From Candidatus Woesearchaeota archaeon (GTDB taxonomy: Archaea; Nanobdellota; Nanobdellia; SCGC-AAA011-G17; ARS1403), in NCBI GenBank assembly GCA_016181275.1, contig JACOZQ010000024.1, positions 661-53,405 of the forward strand: a DNA stretch of 52,745 bases. The letters run 5' to 3'. Below, piece after piece: positions 42,030 to 48,852 of the stretch. How positions within the stretch are numbered: position 1 is the first letter of the stretch; each line of letters opens with the position of its first letter. A program made the translations under genes and the position numbers. The notes under the pieces are model-generated. The model was given only the letters and a program-made list of their open reading frames with translations, searched no databases and was not told where the DNA came from.

Positions 42030-42060
42030 ATTTATAAATCAAATATTGGTTAAATTGAAC

Positions 42061-42264
42061 ATGACAAAATATAAAGTTCATGTTACGGATGATTGTATTG
42101 CATGCAATGCCTGCGTTTCTGCATGTGAAGAAAATTTTGAGATGAATGATGATAATACAAAAGCAAAAGTTAAAAAATCTGTAATTTCCGACAAAGAGCT
42201 TGCTAAAAACCAGGAAGCAAAAGAGATCTGCCCTGTTGAAGCAATAAAAATTGAGGAAAGCTAA
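42061..42264 (+). CDS. Small [4Fe-4S]/[3Fe-4S]-type ferredoxin
   Basis: The 67-aa product from ATG 42061 has CIACNACVSAC...CP. The 126-aa ORF-track version starts inside nrdB and is rejected. Confidence 0.8.
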   Translation: MTKYKVHVTDDCIACNACVSACEENFEMNDDNTKAKVKKSVISDKELAKNQEAKEICPVEAIKIEES

Positions 42265-42273
42265 TTAAATTCT

Positions 42274-42498
42274 TTATAACCTAGATTCGATAGTTTCATT
42301 ATCTTCGCTTAAAGGATGAATTTCGGCATGCCTTCTTGAAACATAAATCTCCCTTCCTGGATGATAAACTGAGCTGAACACATAATTATTTGATTCTATT
42401 CTTGCAAGAACACCAATTTCCTTCTTGCTTTTATCATGCTCATAAACTATTAGAACAGGACTTCCAACCATAGATTCCTCATTTTTTTCTTTATTCAT
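42274..42498 (-). CDS. Stand-alone TRAM-like domain ORF
   Basis: The segment from ATG 42498 (MNKEKNEESMVGSPVLIVYEHDKSKKEIGVLARIESNNYVFSSVYHPGREIYV) resembles the C-terminal TRAM domain that the upstream methylthiotransferase lacks. It is in a different frame, 58 nt after that gene's stop. Confidence 0.5.
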   Translation of the reverse strand: MNKEKNEESMVGSPVLIVYEHDKSKKEIGVLARIESNNYVFSSVYHPGREIYVSRRHAEIHPLSEDNETIESRL

Positions 42499-42556
42499 GC
42501 CGTTTTTTCTGAATAAGATATATATAATTCTGCTTGTTAAAATATTAAACAATTGT

Positions 42557-43630
42557 TTAGATTAAATCTTTTCTATAACTCTTATATAGATTATTCAACT
42601 TAATTGTTCTTTCTTTTATTATCTCGCTCGGGATTTGTTTTAATTTTGAAGCATGAGTTCCTGGACGAGAAGAGAATTTTGAGATGTTTAAAACTTCTGG
42701 CTTTGCTTCTTTTATTAGATCATAAGTAAGCTCAAAATCTTTTTCTGTCTCCGTCGGATAACCAGTTATAATATCTGTCGCTATTGAAATCTCTGGAAAT
42801 TTTTTCCTAAATGCTTTAACTGCTTCCTTATAATTCTCAACGGTGTGAATTCTTTTCATATCCTTTAAAATTTTCTCAGAGCCAGACTGAACGGGGATGT
42901 GCAGGAATTTCATTATTTTTTCTGATTTATAAGACTGCAAGAGCTGAGGAAGTATTTTTGCCAGATGCCATGGGTTCATCATTCCTACTCGAATAATATA
43001 ATCACCTTCAATTGTTACTATCTCATTCAATAACTCTGGAAGAGATGTTTTTATATCAAATCCATAACATCCATTGTCTTGGCTTGTAAGATAAATTTTT
43101 TTGCATCCTTCTTTGACTGCTTTTTCAGTGCTTCTCTTTATGTCTCCAATTCTATAAGAGCGAAGACTTCCTCGAGCTAATTTCGTCGCGCAGAATGTAC
43201 AAGAATTCAAGCATCCCTCCCCTATGGAAATAATTCCAATGCTTTTATCCTTTCTTATTATTGGAGCTGAAATCCTATTTTCTTTTTTATCTGAAAAATG
43301 ATCCTGCTCTGTCTGCAAAACTTGATCAATTTTTAAAATAGAATTTGTGTCAAAAACTGCTATAACTCCTGGAGCATATTTTTTTATGTCCAGTGTTTTT
43401 GTCAAGCATCCGCCAACGATAATTTTCTTATTTTTTGATTTCTCTTTTATGTAATGCAGCTCCTTTGATTGAGTCGCATTCTTTACAGAGCATGTATTAA
43501 CAATTATTGCATCTGCTTCTTCTTCGTTTTCAACTAGTTTGTAATTTTTGTTTTTTAAAATTCCTGCAATCTGTTCTGAATCTGATATATTTGCCTGGCA
43601 GCCAAATGTTTTAATAAATATTTTATTCAT
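42557..43630 (-). CDS. MiaB/MtaB-family radical-SAM methylthiotransferase lacking its TRAM domain
   Basis: The UPF0004 N-terminus is IFIKTFGCQANISDSE. The radical-SAM cluster motif is CLNSCTFC. The protein ends right after the radical-SAM core. Confidence 0.85.
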   Translation of the reverse strand: MNKIFIKTFGCQANISDSEQIAGILKNKNYKLVENEEEADAIIVNTCSVKNATQSKELHYIKEKSKNKKIIVGGCLTKTLDIKKYAPGVIAVFDTNSILKIDQVLQTEQDHFSDKKENRISAPIIRKDKSIGIISIGEGCLNSCTFCATKLARGSLRSYRIGDIKRSTEKAVKEGCKKIYLTSQDNGCYGFDIKTSLPELLNEIVTIEGDYIIRVGMMNPWHLAKILPQLLQSYKSEKIMKFLHIPVQSGSEKILKDMKRIHTVENYKEAVKAFRKKFPEISIATDIITGYPTETEKDFELTYDLIKEAKPEVLNISKFSSRPGTHASKLKQIPSEIIKERTIKLNNLYKSYRKDLI

Positions 43631-43661
43631 AGAAATAAAGATAGAAAAATGGTTTAAAAAT

Positions 43662-43964
43662 TTAATGCCCCTGACAGGCAGAATCTGTAGGCACCTCTGT
43701 TTTCATATTCTTTTTAATAATAAATTTATTTTCAACTAAATACTGCTCCACTTCATCTCCAGAAACATCAATCAGCATTTTTCCATTAACTTCAACACAA
43801 GGCGAGAGAGTTTTACCTGATTTTTCTACCATTTCCTGAAATTGCACTTGCTCATTTATTATATCTCTATCTTCATACTTCAAATTATACTTCTTCATTA
43901 TCTCGCGAACACCCATGCTCCATCCGCATTGCGGTTTTAGATAAGCAATAATTTTTAGTTCCAT
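43662..43964 (-). CDS. Glutaredoxin-fold protein with a monothiol CGWS motif
   Basis: The thioredoxin-fold pattern is IIAYLKPQCGWSMGVREIMKKYNLKYEDRDI...SPCVEVNGKMLIDVSGDEV. Confidence 0.6.
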   Translation of the reverse strand: MELKIIAYLKPQCGWSMGVREIMKKYNLKYEDRDIINEQVQFQEMVEKSGKTLSPCVEVNGKMLIDVSGDEVEQYLVENKFIIKKNMKTEVPTDSACQGH

Positions 43965-44004
43965 AGTAATTTAAGGATATATTAGGTTTTATAACTTTTT
44001 TGCT

Positions 44005-45747
44005 TTAACTTTTAAAATAATTTGCTATCCTTCTGTAAACTTGCGCTTCCCTCTCCTTCCCTTGAGCTTCTGCTACAATTGCACAATTTCCAAAGTCTAA
44101 ATACCTTTCATAATCTTCTATTACTCCTTTAGGAAGTCTAGGCACACTTAATCCGTACTCTTTAGCAAAGGAGATTGCTCTCACATAATGCCTATTTTTT
44201 ACAAGAAGTTTTACAGCAGAATTTGCTATTTGTACAGGCCTTCTTAAATCTGTTCCTATCTTGGATTTTTCAATTGCTTTTTTTAGCTGATCAACTCCAT
44301 ATTCTAATTCTTCACTAACATAAACTCTTCTCTCTCCTGACAAGGACAAATCCGCTTCTTGCAATAAAAGATCTATTTTTTCTTCTGTATCTTCTGTATA
44401 ATCTAAAGCACGATCATACATTTTTGCTTTGATTAACAAATCTTTTATAGTTTTTTTATCCCTTCTCAAATTTCTGGAAATTTCAACCTGTGCAGCTTCT
44501 TCAAATCTGCCTTGACTTTGATATTCATTAGACAACCAATCAACTAAACCTAACTTATTTGTTAGTTCTATCTTTTTTCTTTGATCTCTAACTATCCAAA
44601 CATATTCTCTTGCTCTATCTCCAACTTTATCAAGTAAATTAGTTTCTACAAATTCTCCTATCTTTCTTAAAGTGGGCGATTGTTCTTGTTCACGCCATTC
44701 CATGTTTTTTTGTGCATTTTCTAATAATTTTACTGCTTGATTAAATGCTAATTCATAATCCTCAAGTTTATGATATAAATGTATAGTTTGAACTTGTGCT
44801 GGAGATTTTTCTAATATTTTTAAGAATCTTCTTTTTGTTGAAGTTCTTTCCTCTTCTGAAAATTCTCTTGTGAATCTATCCACCCAAGATATCGCTTTTT
44901 CCGCAACTTCTTCTGGATCTTTCTCTTTCCCAATGTTAGCTTCAATATCTGAAAATTCATCTTCTAAAGCTCGTCTTCTAACTTTTGTAACCTCTAAAGA
45001 TTTATAACCCCATTCAACTAATCTGTCAATTGCATTTCCCCAATATTTTCTTTCAATATCCAAGTCTATTAATGACTGCCTTAAAATCTGGATAGATTGA
45101 CTATCTTTTTCCACAAATTCTAAAGCCCTTTCAAGAAGCCCATTATATTTCTGATCCCAGAAAAAATCTTTTTCTCTTAATCTTGGCTCTGCATCTTGAC
45201 AAACCTTAACAACTCTTTTAGGATTTAATTCACTAGCAACTTTCAATGCCGCTTCAAACTCCATACATTGCTCCAATTGAGTAATTGCTTCTTCCTGTCT
45301 TCCTGAAGGTAAAAGAACATAATCGACCAAGGATTTTTTAAGCTTGTATGCTTCATCAATTCTTTCTCCTTCCATGGCAATTCCTGGAATAGGACTATCT
45401 GTAATATCATGCTTTGGTTTGCCCGGAATTATACTTTGGATTCTCTCTGTTAAAAGATTTAATCTATCATATTTTAATGTTATCAAAAAAAATGTCCTAA
45501 AATCGCCGTTTTTATATGCTCTCTCTAATGCTTGATTAACAACCAGGTCTTCCACTACTGGAAATGTTGTTTCAACATCAAAGATTGTTTTCCAACTATT
45601 ACTAAATTGACCAACTCTTTGAGAAACAACTCTCGCACCTTCATATAACAAGAAAGATTTTGCTTCAGGAGTTTTTAAGACTCCTTCTGTTCCTCCATCA
45701 AATGGATTCCATTCAACCAAATCACTTCTTCGAGCAGTATTAGGCAT
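44005..45747 (-). CDS. Hypothetical all-helical protein, 580 aa
   Basis: This is a long uninterrupted ORF with no signal peptide or TM segment. The composition is helical and repeat-like. No family was recognised. Confidence 0.6.
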   Translation of the reverse strand: MPNTARRSDLVEWNPFDGGTEGVLKTPEAKSFLLYEGARVVSQRVGQFSNSWKTIFDVETTFPVVEDLVVNQALERAYKNGDFRTFFLITLKYDRLNLLTERIQSIIPGKPKHDITDSPIPGIAMEGERIDEAYKLKKSLVDYVLLPSGRQEEAITQLEQCMEFEAALKVASELNPKRVVKVCQDAEPRLREKDFFWDQKYNGLLERALEFVEKDSQSIQILRQSLIDLDIERKYWGNAIDRLVEWGYKSLEVTKVRRRALEDEFSDIEANIGKEKDPEEVAEKAISWVDRFTREFSEEERTSTKRRFLKILEKSPAQVQTIHLYHKLEDYELAFNQAVKLLENAQKNMEWREQEQSPTLRKIGEFVETNLLDKVGDRAREYVWIVRDQRKKIELTNKLGLVDWLSNEYQSQGRFEEAAQVEISRNLRRDKKTIKDLLIKAKMYDRALDYTEDTEEKIDLLLQEADLSLSGERRVYVSEELEYGVDQLKKAIEKSKIGTDLRRPVQIANSAVKLLVKNRHYVRAISFAKEYGLSVPRLPKGVIEDYERYLDFGNCAIVAEAQGKEREAQVYRRIANYFKS

Positions 45748-45812
45748 AAAAATGATTTACAATCAGAATATATAAACAAGATTATTCTCTATTCAATATT
45801 TTAAAATTATAG

Positions 45813-45883
45813 TGATGAACAGCATCCTGGCTTCTCATGCTAAAGCACAGTACAACCCAAGATGTGAGCCTGCTTAATTCTAG
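45813..45883 (-). pseudogene. Partial 5S rRNA-like sequence (3' ~70 nt of the gene)
   Basis: TGATGAACAGCA is identical to 47306-47317. Further blocks (AGTACA, CCTGCTTAA) match at the same offsets from that anchor as in the 5S gene. Identity is roughly 39 of 70 ungapped positions. It is in the same orientation as the intact 5S. Confidence 0.5.
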
Positions 45884-45902
45884 TTTCGGAATATATAAAA
45901 TT

Positions 45903-45940
45903 ATTTCGGTTGTAAATTACTGCCATTCAAGAACCGAAAT
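45903..45940. promoter_or_regulatory. Inverted repeat ATTTCGGTT / AACCGAAAT upstream of the wHTH-nucleotidyltransferase gene
   Basis: The 9-bp perfect arms are separated by 20 nt. A third TTTCGG half-site is at 45884-45889. The TATA-like GTTTATAAAT follows at 45941-45950. Confidence 0.35.
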
Positions 45941-45972
45941 GTTTATAAATATGTTATTATAGTAGATAATAT

Positions 45973-46830
45973 ATGTTATCCAAAATAATAACAATTGTAA
46001 ATTTTAGGATATTGAAATTTTTAATCAAAAGAACAGAACCTAGTCTTAGTGATATAGCAAGATGTACAAAAACGACAAAGGCCAATACTTTCTATGCCTT
46101 AAAAAGCTTATTAAAAGAAAATATTGTAAGAAAAACAATCAAGGGTAAAACCCACCTTTACAAATTTAATATATTCCATCCATATTCCAAGATCATTATT
46201 GATATGGTAGAAGAAGAAAGGCAATCCAGTTATAATGAAAAACTGGGTAATATTCCAATGATTATTCATTCCTTTCTTGCAACTTCCCTTAAAAAGGAGT
46301 ATCAAGGCTGTATTTTTTTTGGGTCTAGCCTGGTGGATAAATATAAGGATATAGATGTTTTCATCCTCATAAAAAATAAAAAAAAGACGGTGGCTTTAGA
46401 AAAAAAATTAAAGTTTATCAATCGTAAAATTTCTCCTATTTTTGGTTCAGAAGGAGAGATTAAAATCGGGATTAAAAATGAAGATATGCTCTATAAAAAT
46501 ATTATCGAGGGAGTTTCATTTGGGTTTGACGCGGCAAAGATTAAATATCAAGATTTATTTCTAAAAAAACAAGATATAATAGAGAGATTTATTATAGGAT
46601 ATAGAGAGATTTTAAGTTGTTTGGAATTTAAAGAAAGAGAATATGTCAAACTTCATTTGGATAGGGGAATAATGGATGTTATTTATGCAATATTGAATTA
46701 TTTTGATTTTTTCCCGAGAAATGATAAAGAAGCCATTAGTCTATTCAAAAATAGTCTTAAGGAATCAAAACCAAAAACAATAAAAGAAGCATTTTGTACT
46801 ATAGAAAAATATGGTTGGATACTGAGATGA
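45973..46830 (+). CDS. wHTH + nucleotidyltransferase-domain protein (MNT-like)
   Basis: The N-terminal wHTH is SLSDIARCTKTTKANTFYALKSLLKENIV. The NTase motif is IFFGSSLVDKYKDIDVFILI. Confidence 0.6.
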   Translation: MLSKIITIVNFRILKFLIKRTEPSLSDIARCTKTTKANTFYALKSLLKENIVRKTIKGKTHLYKFNIFHPYSKIIIDMVEEERQSSYNEKLGNIPMIIHSFLATSLKKEYQGCIFFGSSLVDKYKDIDVFILIKNKKKTVALEKKLKFINRKISPIFGSEGEIKIGIKNEDMLYKNIIEGVSFGFDAAKIKYQDLFLKKQDIIERFIIGYREILSCLEFKEREYVKLHLDRGIMDVIYAILNYFDFFPRNDKEAISLFKNSLKESKPKTIKEAFCTIEKYGWILR

Positions 46831-47308
46831 AAGAAAAAGAAATAAAAGAGGAATTGGAGCTTTGCTTAAGAAGTTTTTTGGACGCTGAAGAAAGATCAAA
46901 ACAAAAAGGTATTGATACTTTTGACGAATTTTAGAAAGTGCTTTTAATAGGTTATTTATGTGTATGGAGCATTTATGCAATGCCATAATCTTATTAGAGA
47001 TGGGAAACTTCAGTAAGAAGCATTTTGGAGACTTTACAAAATTAAAAGGTTTAAAAGAAAAATACATGTCAGATTTAGCAGAAACATACCAAACTACTTA
47101 TAACTTTAGGTCTTATGGTGATTACAGAAAATTTCCAGAAGTCAAAGATAAGTTTAACAGAGGAGAATTAAAAAATAAAATTACAGTAGTAAATGTAGTA
47201 ATCAGGAACAGTTTTGGGATAATAGGGAGAGATGTAGATATTAAGGAGATAACTCAAAAATTATTCAAAACTAAAAAACAAAAGCCTATGAATAATAAAA
47301 ATAAATGA
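46827..47308 (+). pseudogene. HEPN-like partner gene, apparently frameshifted
   Basis: ATG 46827 overlaps the upstream TGA (ATGA) and reads 35 codons to TAG 46932-46934. An overlapping frame open from 46925 continues as RILESAFNRLFMCMEHLCNAIILLEMGNFSKKHFGDF... to 47308. One single-base shift would make a ~160-aa HEPN-sized product. Confidence 0.4.
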
Positions 47309-47422
47309 TGAACAGCACCAGGAATTTCCCCCAATTATTGGAGTACAGTTCTAGGCGTTGTCCTGCTTAACTTCCGTGTTCAGATGGGAACGGGTGGAAC
47401 CAGGACACTATGACCGTCCATC
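47307..47422 (-). rRNA. 5S ribosomal RNA
   Basis: The reverse complement reads GAUGGACGGUCAUAGUGUCCUGGUUCCACCCGUUCCCAUCUGAACACGGAAGUUAAGCAGGACAACGCC...CUGGUGCUGUUCAUC. Helix I end-pairing, GUCCUG/CAGGAC helix II, and the conserved GAAC...GGAAGUUAAGC region are all present. Confidence 0.85.
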
Positions 47423-47480
47423 AATAAAGAAGCAGCAAAAATGGATTTTTAAAGTTTACCCAAAAAAGAAAGTTTTAAAT

Positions 47481-47503: not shown

Positions 47504-47695
47504 ATGAAAACCGTTCCGGCAAAGCTTACTGAAAAATTAGTAGTTGAAGCAGACAATCTAATCAAAGAAGGATGGTATGCAAACAAATCAGAGTTAATTA
47601 GAGATGCTATTAGAGAATTAATTAATAAAACAAAGATGCAAAAACTTGAGAAGGCAATAAAAGAAGATGTAAAATGGGGGTTATATGGAAAATGA
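47504..47695 (+). CDS. Small antitoxin-like protein (RHH/UPF0175-like)
   Basis: The pattern KTVPAKLTEKLVVEADNLIKEGWYANKSELIRDAIRELI fits the family. It overlaps the downstream PIN-like gene by 11 nt. Confidence 0.55.
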   Translation: MKTVPAKLTEKLVVEADNLIKEGWYANKSELIRDAIRELINKTKMQKLEKAIKEDVKWGLYGK

Positions 47696-48170
47696 AAGCT
47701 GTTCTGACAGCGGGCCTCTAATTCATTTAAACGAAATACATTCCTTACAATTATTCAAAATTTTTTCTAAGATTCATATTACAACCATTATTAAAGAGGA
47801 GATAAAAAAATATGAAATTAAATTGCCATCAAGGTTTGTTGTTGATAATATAAATAAGGACCAGATTTTGCTAATATCTGAAAGATATGGAATAGATCTC
47901 GGAGAATCCTCTACCATATGGCTGTGCAAATCATTAAATATATCTATTTTTCTTACTGATGATTTGGAAGCAAGGGAAACTGCTGAAAGTTTAGATCTGA
48001 GCCCCATTGGTACGATCGGAATAATATTAAGAAGCTTTAGGGAGGATATTATTAAAAAAGAAGATGCAATAATTTTATTGAAAGAGATATATCAGTCTTC
48101 TTCACTTTTCGTTACTTCTTCACTCATACAATATGCTATAAGAGAAATAAATAACTACAAGAAAAAATAA
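47685..48170 (+). CDS. DUF3368-type PIN-like protein (putative toxin)
   Basis: SDSGPLIHLNEI, DLGESSTIWLCK, FLTDDLEARETAESL and GTIGIILRSF follow the DUF3368 pattern. Confidence 0.65.
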   Translation: MENESCSDSGPLIHLNEIHSLQLFKIFSKIHITTIIKEEIKKYEIKLPSRFVVDNINKDQILLISERYGIDLGESSTIWLCKSLNISIFLTDDLEARETAESLDLSPIGTIGIILRSFREDIIKKEDAIILLKEIYQSSSLFVTSSLIQYAIREINNYKKK

Positions 48171-48174
48171 ATTA

Positions 48175-48852
48175 TTAACTGAAAGTTTTTCTCTCTGTAA
48201 AACTATAATAACTATCCTTTCCGATTATCACATGGTCTAAAACCGGAATTGACAATAGCCTTCCCGAATCCTTTAAAATTTTTGTTACTTCGATGTCCGG
48301 CTGAGATGGATTTGAGTTTCCATTCGGATGATTATGTACTAGAATTATTGAATCAGCGCTATCCTTTATTGCTTCTTTGAAAACTTCTCTTGGATGGACT
48401 AAAGTTGTATTCAAAGTTCCAACGCTTATTTCTTTTATGCAGATAACTTCTCTCTTTGTGTCCAATAAAACTGTAAATAAAACTTCTTTCTTGTAATTTT
48501 TAACTTTATCAGACAGCATATCATTAATCTGCCTTGCTGATATGATTGCTTTTTTGTTGTATCCTCCTTTCACTAATTTATTACATCTTTTATTCAACTC
48601 TATAAAGCTGAGAATTTTCAATGCTACTATCCTGTCATTATTGCATTCTTTTTTCAATCCCTCAAAACCTAATTCTTCCAATCTATTAAAATTATATTTT
48701 TTCAATAATTTGTTAGCAAGATTAACAATGCTTCCATTTTTTGTTTTTCCAAGCAAGATTTCAAGCAATTCGGAATCAGATAATTTTTCAGCTCCTTCCC
48801 TGATTAATCTGTTTCCTGGACGATCGTACCATGGCATATCTAAAATTCCCAT
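48175..48852 (-). CDS. radC: RadC-family JAB/MPN-domain protein
   Basis: The JAMM motif is LVHNHPNGNSNPSQPD. The N-terminal helix-hairpin-helix-like region is SDSELLEILLGKT. Confidence 0.85.
   Translation of the reverse strand: MGILDMPWYDRPGNRLIREGAEKLSDSELLEILLGKTKNGSIVNLANKLLKKYNFNRLEELGFEGLKKECNNDRIVALKILSFIELNKRCNKLVKGGYNKKAIISARQINDMLSDKVKNYKKEVLFTVLLDTKREVICIKEISVGTLNTTLVHPREVFKEAIKDSADSIILVHNHPNGNSNPSQPDIEVTKILKDSGRLLSIPVLDHVIIGKDSYYSFTERKTFS

Follow-up and report, generated by a model that had tools for sequence, protein, structure and literature searches.

A truncated 5S rRNA gene fragment of non-resident type beside the 5S gene of a Woesearchaeota archaeon, a possible scar of imported DNA

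The stretch of DNA analysed here (the window, 52,745 nucleotides of contig JACOZQ010000024.1, assembly GCA_016181275.1) comes from a Candidatus Woesearchaeota archaeon and carries, between its complete 5S rRNA gene and a glutaredoxin (Grx) gene, a second 5S-like sequence without the 5' third, which we call the relic. The window has a GC content of 33%, and homologues of its proteins carry the source labels Woesearchaeota/Nanoarchaeota (DPANN); we take the source to be a small groundwater archaeon of these groups. An Rfam scan of the window retrieved one 5S rRNA gene (47307-47421, minus strand) and one intron-containing tRNA. The features at the centre of the analysis are as follows.

47307..47421, minus strand: resident complete 5S rRNA gene (RF00001, 77.1 bits, model positions 1-120; 116.7 bits with R1, a covariance model of relatives' 5S genes)
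45814..~45897, minus strand: the relic, a 5'-truncated 5S fragment (nhmmer match 45814-45891, model positions 38-117; also found with R1 and with unforced columns)
45813..45824, no strand assigned: 12-nt block TGATGAACAGCA, identical to 47306-47317
43999..47298, no strand assigned: lineage-specific insert between 5S and Grx, with the gene p580, the relic and a two-gene cassette (gap in blastn coverage)
44005..45747, minus strand: p580, for a helical protein from a very rare family; a TATA box of the gene's own lies about 30 nt ahead of the ATG
45932..45972, plus strand: cassette promoter/operator, AACCGAAATGTTTATAAAT followed by the palindrome-like GTTATTATAGTAGATAAT right before the ATG
45973..46830, plus strand: first cassette gene, for a 285-aa protein with a winged helix-turn-helix (wHTH), a Pol-beta-type nucleotidyltransferase (NTase) and a helical C-terminal domain (Pfam, motif and AlphaFold2 model)
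46827..47308, plus strand: cassette partner gene, disrupted into pieces of 35 aa (46827-46934) and 116 aa (46958-47308)
43662..43964, minus strand: Grx gene (Pfam Glutaredoxin), the conserved far border of the slot
42557-43630: MiaB-like gene, after Grx

An earlier, sequence-only reading of this locus had noted that the two copies share a 12-nt block, further blocks at identical offsets and roughly 39 of 70 ungapped matches, and all of this was reproduced: TGATGAACAGCA has only two occurrences in the window, at 45813 and 47306, and in the ungapped register 39/70 positions match, TTAAGCAGG and TGTACT standing at the same offsets in both copies. Further 5' the register drops to 11/50, which is background, and a 5' consensus aligns beside the relic at p~0.4-0.5, not significant, in agreement with the claim that the 5' third of the gene has no counterpart. 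The Smith-Waterman score between relic and resident gene (106) is the best of the window, although it was reached by 7 of 100 Markov shuffles and is thus marginal alone. In a normal Rfam 5S scan the relic gave nothing above background; when the stretch was cut to permit 5' truncation, RF00001 was the best family (13.6 bits, model positions 44-120, E=1 over 4227 families).

Models of closer relatives were far more sensitive. We collected related 5S genes, and sampled for recurrence of the partial copy, with one pattern scan each of genome and metagenome collections, plus the neighbours of RadC homologues, which yielded a related set of 21 5S loci (contigs are given below as L numbers). The retrieval pattern forced three shared blocks in five of the relatives, and L029, L030 and L032 were found without it. 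The nhmmer profile and the covariance model R1, the latter from the 5S genes of eight relatives, were built without any window sequence. The profile matched the relic with 38.3 bits (E 1.5e-11, model positions 38-117) and R1 with 34.7 bits (E 9e-9; next window match, 10 bits), so that the covariance-model alignment proposed earlier as a check came out positive with a lineage model, as opposed to the background level of the plain Rfam scan. Counting only the 55 unforced columns, the relic scores +15.3 bits (z 6.2), a value that none of the other 105,336 window positions attains except the true 5S gene (next, -10.3); this direct scoring of columns replaced a masked nhmmer run, which was uninformative since the seeds were masked.

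The matched sequence comprises the 3' side of loop C, the 3' strands of helices III and II, helices V and IV and the 3' strand of helix I, with its 5' limit in loop C, at about 45891-45903. It scores below the full-length RF00001 gathering score and is without the 5' strands of helices I, II and III; judged by its sequence, it is a 5S-derived gene fragment and not a 5S gene. The resident gene, by comparison, is a full-length RF00001 match above the gathering score (38 bits). A possible 5' strand of helix I, UUGAAUGGC, lies at full-length distance from the relic and offers 8/9 pairs (p~0.09), and a full-length alignment of the relic to the covariance model (117 nt, 45814-45930) was discarded because its 5' portion is not significant. 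Nor was the missing 5' third found elsewhere in the window in a test for a nested or split 5S gene with nhmmer and the covariance model.

The marginal pairwise similarity and the background score in the normal Rfam scan might have suggested a chance resemblance or an assembly artefact. Both are excluded, the former by the E values from models that contain no window sequence and by the score on unforced columns, and the latter by the same arrangement in independently assembled contigs of SRR12113420, -430, -431 and -433. Contigs at least 99.97% identical to the window come from several sequencing runs of one project, and the population is clonal: exact-protein look-ups for population variants without the cassette returned a single arrangement, so the empty sites described below are those of other lineages.

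Which kind of 5S gene each copy represents is best seen from the resident gene. Its closest relative found is L029 (sister-lineage contig JGI 3300025317, Ga0209541_10022173), with RadC and RHH proteins 87% and 90% identical to those of the window. L029 is collinear with window positions 48853-47301 (RadC, RHH-PIN pair, 5S promoter and 5S), with 81% of nucleotides identical, and the alignment breaks off 6 nt after the 5S 3' end. The two 5S genes are 90% identical in the 3' domain and have in common loop C and the unusual helix IV of the resident type, CUCCAAUAAGUGGGGG or CUCCAAUAA(U/G)UGGGGG. Because both features recur in L029, the resident gene is native over its whole length: it was vertically inherited, neither interrupted nor rebuilt, and contains no 3' segment supplied by an element. 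In this resident type (window 47307-47421; L029 8552-8666), helix IV reads CCAA-UAA-UUGG instead of GUGC-UUAU-GCAU. In helix V, the window 5S has two non-canonical pairs, U-U and A-C; at these places the pairs of L029 and L024 are canonical.

The relic is of another type. The earlier claim that its helix IV hairpin can still pair with different bases proved correct, in that the minimum-free-energy fold of the relic is a 5S gamma domain, with the hairpin GUGC-UUUA-GCAU and a 7-bp helix V. This hairpin is the usual one of the family (GUGC-UUAU/UUUU-GCAU in L020 and L022), the loop C segment CCGAAACUAGAA is that of L026/L023, and the helix II strand, of type CAGGCUCAC, resembles that of L025/L016. 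Overall the partial copy is about 55-60% identical to the resident gene, and outside the forced blocks it matches the resident 5S in 20/56 columns versus 23-31/56 for other lineages; another alignment gave identities of 50-54% with the resident type and 65% with L025. The differences of the relic cluster in helix V, the fastest covarying stem in real family members, and are compensatory, AUCUUGG pairing with CCAGGAU over 7 bp. Twelve of the 14 gamma-domain pairs are kept despite 10-20 substitutions in the 28 paired bases with respect to any sampled 5S, and when the same amount of substitution is placed at random, 12 or more pairs survive with P 0.0004-0.006, whichever sampled 5S is the starting point. 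Folding energy relative to shuffles does not discriminate (z -0.5 for the relic, -0.66 for the true gamma domain). From the compensatory changes and the kept gamma-domain pairs we conclude that the relic must have diverged under structural constraint, within a working 5S of a lineage other than the resident one, and the column counts argue firmly that it is no worn copy of its neighbour. Since the relic is not copied from the resident 5S, an origin as a retro-copy of 5S rRNA, which would be complete at the 3' end and truncated at the 5' end, is unlikely.

The 12-nt block that had been proposed as an att-like core, to be sought on other contigs, turned out to be something else: TGATGAACAGCA is the 3' strand of helix I plus one base. 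Every 5S gene of the family shares it, those found without the pattern (L029, L030 and L032) among them, and it is therefore no attachment-site signature and carries no information on a crossover. The 3' flank of the relic, CAUCAC, is likewise family-typical, and a T-run follows downstream. We also inspected two weaker resemblances around the relic and used neither, a similarity of its 3' flank to the Grx promoter region of L014/L026 that is marginal (p 0.04-0.055), and a flanking 14-nt direct repeat, TCRGAATATATAAA, which is at chance level in AT-rich DNA.

Relatives conserve the order RadC, 5S, Grx, MiaB, with Grx 77-86% identical in amino acid sequence in L014, L021-L024, L026 and L027 and downstream of 5S in every one of them. 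Blastn comparisons with ten relatives cover window positions 42031-43998 and 47299-47462 with no coverage between, and nucleotide homology with every relative ends about 6-8 nt from the 5S 3' end. The slot so defined begins at the 5S 3' end and reaches to the Grx promoter; what it contains varies among relatives. It is empty in three lineages (L021/L027, L022), where Grx begins about 15-40 nt after 5S, so that relatives with an uninterrupted 5S flank, which the sequence-only reading had asked for, do exist. The slot of L014 contains a 94-aa open reading frame (ORF), and those of L023, L026, L024, L018 and L032 a methyltransferase and a 2-hydroxyacid dehydrogenase gene; other 5S genes of the family are followed, with no Grx in view, by genes for a trypsin-like protease (L015/L019) or an Ogg glycosylase (L020). 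The slot occupants in relatives are ordinary genes and none is an integrase, which leaves the suggested longer, integrase-bearing element at the same site without an example among them. Alignments with these relatives thus argue strongly for a variable slot with empty sites, one that appears to have been filled independently in related lineages. A second or partial 5S copy occurs in 0/21 of the related 5S loci, although their flanks vary too.

Genes convergent to 5S stop within the 5S 3' end, or no more than 2 nt from it, in L023 (4765-5370), L026 (748-1353), L024 (1131-1736) and the window. In a gene ending there, the T-run of the 5S terminator is therefore read as a Lys/Asn-rich tail, and we regard such convergent gene ends as a sign of extreme genome compaction.

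Within the insert, p580 starts 65 nt downstream of the relic, behind its own TATA box. A word-based search for p580 homologues retrieved none, and 15 distant ones (at most 31% identity) were found among 1.84 billion representatives; the gene is absent from all syntenic relatives. An identity as integrase or viral gene was discarded, since p580 has no Pfam, PHROG, PADLOC or phage match.

As the sequence-only reading stated, only the wHTH-NTase gene and its partner lie between the two 5S copies; the label HEPN that it gave to the partner finds no support in profile searches. The 285-aa protein has weak Pfam matches to MarR/IclR HTH families and to NTP_transf_2, the latter below cut-off (E 0.0096; 16.7 versus 21 bits). 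Residues G117-S118-S119 ... D126-I-D128 are invariant in 17 homologues and fit the Pol-beta motif hG[GS]x9-13Dh[DE]. In an AlphaFold2 model of high predicted confidence (pLDDT 91.8) the N-terminus matches ArsR/MarR repressors, and the top matches of a fold search with the protein are solely wHTH repressors. We found 58 homologues with 45-74% identity, all of them from Woesearchaeota/Nanoarchaeota, and in those examined an intact partner of 152-164 aa follows, with overlapping NTase stop and partner start codons.

In the window, the stop codon of the partner (TGA) lies inside the 5S 3' end, and a 7-nt deletion at about 46927, deduced from nucleotide alignment with three homologues, shifts its frame. 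The split is repeated in contigs from several sequencing runs, so the frameshift is no assembly error, and with its partner gene disrupted the cassette is decaying. The partner gene had no match in Pfam, the PDB, PADLOC or PHROG, and a single-sequence model of the 116-aa fragment was unusable (pLDDT 45). HEPN proteins are recognised by their fold and an Rx4-6H motif; residues R44-x6-H51 are invariant in five partner sequences, and the partner is a plausible HEPN candidate. MNT-HEPN (MntA/HepT, type VII) toxin-antitoxin pairs are abundant in archaea, and the cassette resembles them in its two-gene operon with overlapping stop and start, in the invariant GS...DxD Pol-beta NTase motif, in the small helical partner with invariant R44-x6-H51 and in its scattered genomic contexts. 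Unlike in those pairs, the NTase protein is 285 aa long and bears a wHTH at its N-terminus and a helical domain at its C-terminus, and the partner matches no HEPN profile and, by sequence, no solved structure; the two genes are intact in homologous cassettes, as in MNT-HEPN pairs, and the partner is split in the window.

Every homologous wHTH-NTase gene is preceded by TTTATAAA ... GTTATC-N-GATAAC-ATATG, in otherwise unrelated flanks. The palindrome GTTATC-N5-6-GATAAC ending at the ATG (window 45952-45972; L007, L009, L010, L012), which is accompanied by a TATA box, is probably an autoregulatory operator of the wHTH domain. Seven homologous upstream regions share the promoter/operator only (about 45-60 nt) and contain no 5S-like sequence, which rules out the relic as a conserved part of the cassette; likewise, none of the homologous cassettes examined has a 5S gene beside it. 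A 21-nt inverted repeat (45891-45911 / 45932-45952; 81% complementary, arms 20 nt apart) mirrors the TFIIB recognition element (BRE) and TATA box of the cassette (AACCGAAAT-N-TTTATA). The mirror copy is aimed at the relic and could be a divergent promoter, an idea that we set aside because repeats of this quality are at chance level in AT-rich DNA.

The cassette, which is somewhat AT-richer, belongs to a family found in differing contexts in other genomes and therefore moves. It would be a unit that travels separately, under a promoter and operator of its own, and a second, independent occupant of the slot. Its closest homologue lies 190 nt downstream of an intron-containing tRNA gene (L007 4697-4809). 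The window contains a similar tRNA gene at 1608-1723 (plus strand; Rfam 47.3 bits), whose intron measures about 45 nt and which was missed by ARAGORN.

On the upstream side of the resident 5S we found the following features.

47445..47461, minus strand: conserved BRE/TATA-like 5S promoter (GGGTAAACTTTAAAAAT); nucleotide homology with relatives reaches 47459-47462
47504-47695, plus strand: RHH antitoxin-like gene (Pfam RHH_8/RHH_1)
47685-48170, plus strand: DUF3368/PIN-like gene (DUF3368; PADLOC candidate family PDC-S70, E 1.5e-18)
48175..48852, minus strand: RadC-like JAB gene, conserved upstream neighbour of 5S (Pfam RadC, E 3.6e-42)

In relatives, 5S is preceded at a distance of about 25-40 nt by a GTAAAGCTTAAAAA-type box, and their RadC genes, 72-87% identical, are upstream of 5S in every case. 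The RHH-PIN pair (window 47504-48170; L029 7804-8470) sits between RadC and the 5S promoter and is shared only by L029; toxin-antitoxin-like pairs thus flank the window 5S gene on both sides. This RadC-side slot is also variable, being occupied by RHH-PIN in the window and L029, by a LAGLIDADG endonuclease gene in L021/L027 and by other genes in L030-L033. The LAGLIDADG gene (L021 1506-2240, plus strand, and L027; Pfam LAGLIDADG_3, E 6e-11) is a free-standing homing-endonuclease-like gene between RadC and an insertion-bearing 5S gene, whose first 14 nt it overlaps, and local turnover near 5S could be driven by an endonuclease cutting there.

Many Woesearchaeota 5S genes at the syntenic locus, including the following, have 33 to about 62 nt inserted in loop C/helix III.

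L014 3935-4109, L015 56-233, L019 3677-3854: insertion-bearing 5S, 175-179 nt
L021 2227-2404, L022 1011-1189, L027 1446-1623: insertion-bearing 5S, 175-179 nt
L024 1847-1996: insertion-bearing 5S, 150 nt

These genes pass the Rfam threshold (44-65 bits), and the insertions fold as extra hairpins (z -2.2 in L021) and look like an expansion segment. They are absent from the window, L020, L026, L029 and L030. The insertion site is the same place at which the relic is truncated.

Some integrative elements, among them archaeal integrase elements of the SSV and pNOB8 types and genomic islands of bacteria, insert at tRNA and tmRNA genes, where a displaced partial copy of the 3' part of the gene remains as attR; for such elements PMC2217521 cites Reiter and colleagues (1989). 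The sequence-only reading saw their signature here. Under such site-specific integration, an element whose attP held a 5S-like 3' segment would have recombined at or near the resident 5S 3' end, the relic would be the element-derived arm at the far junction, and the integrase and most of the cargo would later have been deleted, leaving the cassette. Much of the layout agrees with this, as there is an intact RNA gene followed by acquired genes and a co-oriented partial 3' copy, relatives with empty sites, and a synteny break exactly at the RNA gene 3' end, the loss of homology with all relatives included. A relic of foreign type and intact structure is what an attP co-evolved with the 5S of another host would look like, the cassette appears mobile, with its closest homologue just downstream of a tRNA gene, and the partner gene is decaying. 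Other observations point the opposite way. The target would be a 5S gene, and our literature search found no report of a 5S attachment site. No integrase or integrase fragment was detected among all ORFs of 43999-47298 with Pfam, PADLOC and PHROG, as had already been remarked from the sequence. The 12-nt repeat amounts to no more than family conservation, and outside it the identity between relic and resident gene is about 50%. The resident 3' part is the gene's own and was not replaced; the crossover would therefore have to fall at the extreme 3' end, leaving an attP with 65 nt of folded 5S upstream unmotivated. The partial copy is moreover of a different lineage type and recurs at none of the 21 loci, p580 lies beyond it with no second scar before Grx, and cassette homologues travel without a 5S fragment. 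Scans of viral contigs with DNA patterns and protein were negative, the lone match (L038) being a chance match in a GC-rich phage, and a plasmid search with the relic region gave no match. Of six traits used to recognise an integrative element, two are thus present, the layout and the unoccupied sites in relatives. The other four are not: there is no integrase, the core goes no further than family conservation, the 3' segment was not exchanged, and the partial copy does not recur in the loci sampled. We consider integration improbable, and slightly more so its general form, in which Woesearchaeota integrative elements would use the 5S 3' end as attB with an attP containing an intact 5S 3' domain, the relic would be an attR arm and the cassette the last cargo, and slot variability would reflect repeated integration and loss. 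The locus does not show a mobile element targeting 5S genes; were integration true, 5S genes would join tRNA and tmRNA genes as targets and provide a starting point in the search for Woesearchaeota mobile elements, of which hardly any are known.

The alternative named by the sequence-only reading, an old tandem duplication in which a second 5S gene remained functional for long, diverged and lost its 5' third on arrival of the cassette, fares worse and seems to us distinctly unlikely. Same orientation and close proximity favour it, as does the weak hint of a helix I 5' strand used in the 117-nt alignment, although that hint is not significant. The relic is less like the adjacent resident 5S than like the 5S of any other lineage, its divergence of 35-50% far exceeds the 10% between window and L029 and would predate many splits, and the similarity drops abruptly rather than gradually; as to relatives with two full 5S genes in tandem, 21/21 loci have one 5S each. 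Even less probable, with very little credence on our part, is a relic that functions as RNA or DNA, e.g. as a gamma-domain small RNA expressed from the mirror BRE/TATA (45891-45911) and serving as a decoy for a 5S-binding protein or in regulation. The preserved base pairing, the inverted copy of the cassette BRE/TATA that points at the relic and the T-run after it would suit such a role, whereas the relic occurs in one clonal population only and in no relative, its folding energy is no better than that of shuffles, repeats like the mirror copy are at chance level, and p580 has a promoter of its own.

The reading that we favour, and to which we assign about even probability, is that the relic is the scar of horizontally acquired DNA in a slot that varies among relatives. 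The relic would be what is left, truncated at the 5' end and no longer functional, of a second 5S gene belonging to another Woesearchaeota type, brought in with a piece of the chromosome of another Woesearchaeote that by accident started inside the donor 5S loop C. This import would have been fixed between the resident 5S and the Grx promoter. The 5S gene and, across the slot, Grx-MiaB are conserved and would have served as recombination anchors, and the left end of the import, in the donor loop C, would have been joined illegitimately. Most simply, p580 would have arrived together with the relic, from which it lies at normal 5S-to-gene spacing, and the wHTH-NTase cassette would have entered the slot as a separate occupant. 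The 5S-like 3' flank of the relic, the near-orphan status of p580 and the lack of an integrase in the slot speak for this reading. Several points weigh against an import of this kind. It requires an illegitimate junction, which is not verifiable from sequence, and the co-orientation and closeness of the relic to the resident 5S are equally predicted by site-specific integration. No donor lineage was found among the sampled 5S genes, to any of which the relic, on a long branch, is at most about 65% identical, so that one has to allow for some decay or for a source outside the sample. The sole p580 homologue with readable context (L034) has no adjoining 5S gene, codon use and composition/GC give no clear foreign signal for p580, and the view of the slot in the sister lineage is limited, since the L029 contig ends 195 nt past its 5S.

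A comparable situation exists in SAR11, in which the hypervariable region HVR2 is flanked by the 23S and 5S genes, proposed by the authors as recombination sites (PMC2217521). As in HVR2, a conserved rRNA gene borders a slot that differs between close relatives, and exchange is explicable by recombination in conserved flanks with no site-specific system. The slot here is unlike HVR2 in its size (0-3.3 kb), in its DPANN host and in its far anchor (Grx-MiaB), and a truncated rRNA anchor copy of foreign type was left behind, which is not described for HVR2. Gene fragments and pseudogenes of rRNA left by recombination are, moreover, a general phenomenon, and the relic resembles them as a truncated, presumably inert rRNA piece near rearranged DNA; it differs in the compensatory pattern of a working 5S of another lineage, which suggests import rather than local decay.

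If the relic is indeed an import scar, the locus would be a small, clean case of DNA from a foreign lineage entering a streamlined DPANN genome beside a conserved RNA gene, and would illustrate that a truncated rRNA fragment can reveal its foreign origin through compensatory base changes. It would also carry a warning for annotation, because partial 5S-like matches may be import scars and not decayed duplicates. Either way the biological effect is local, with no sign of a new molecular mechanism, and the relic is a real, if modest, curiosity.

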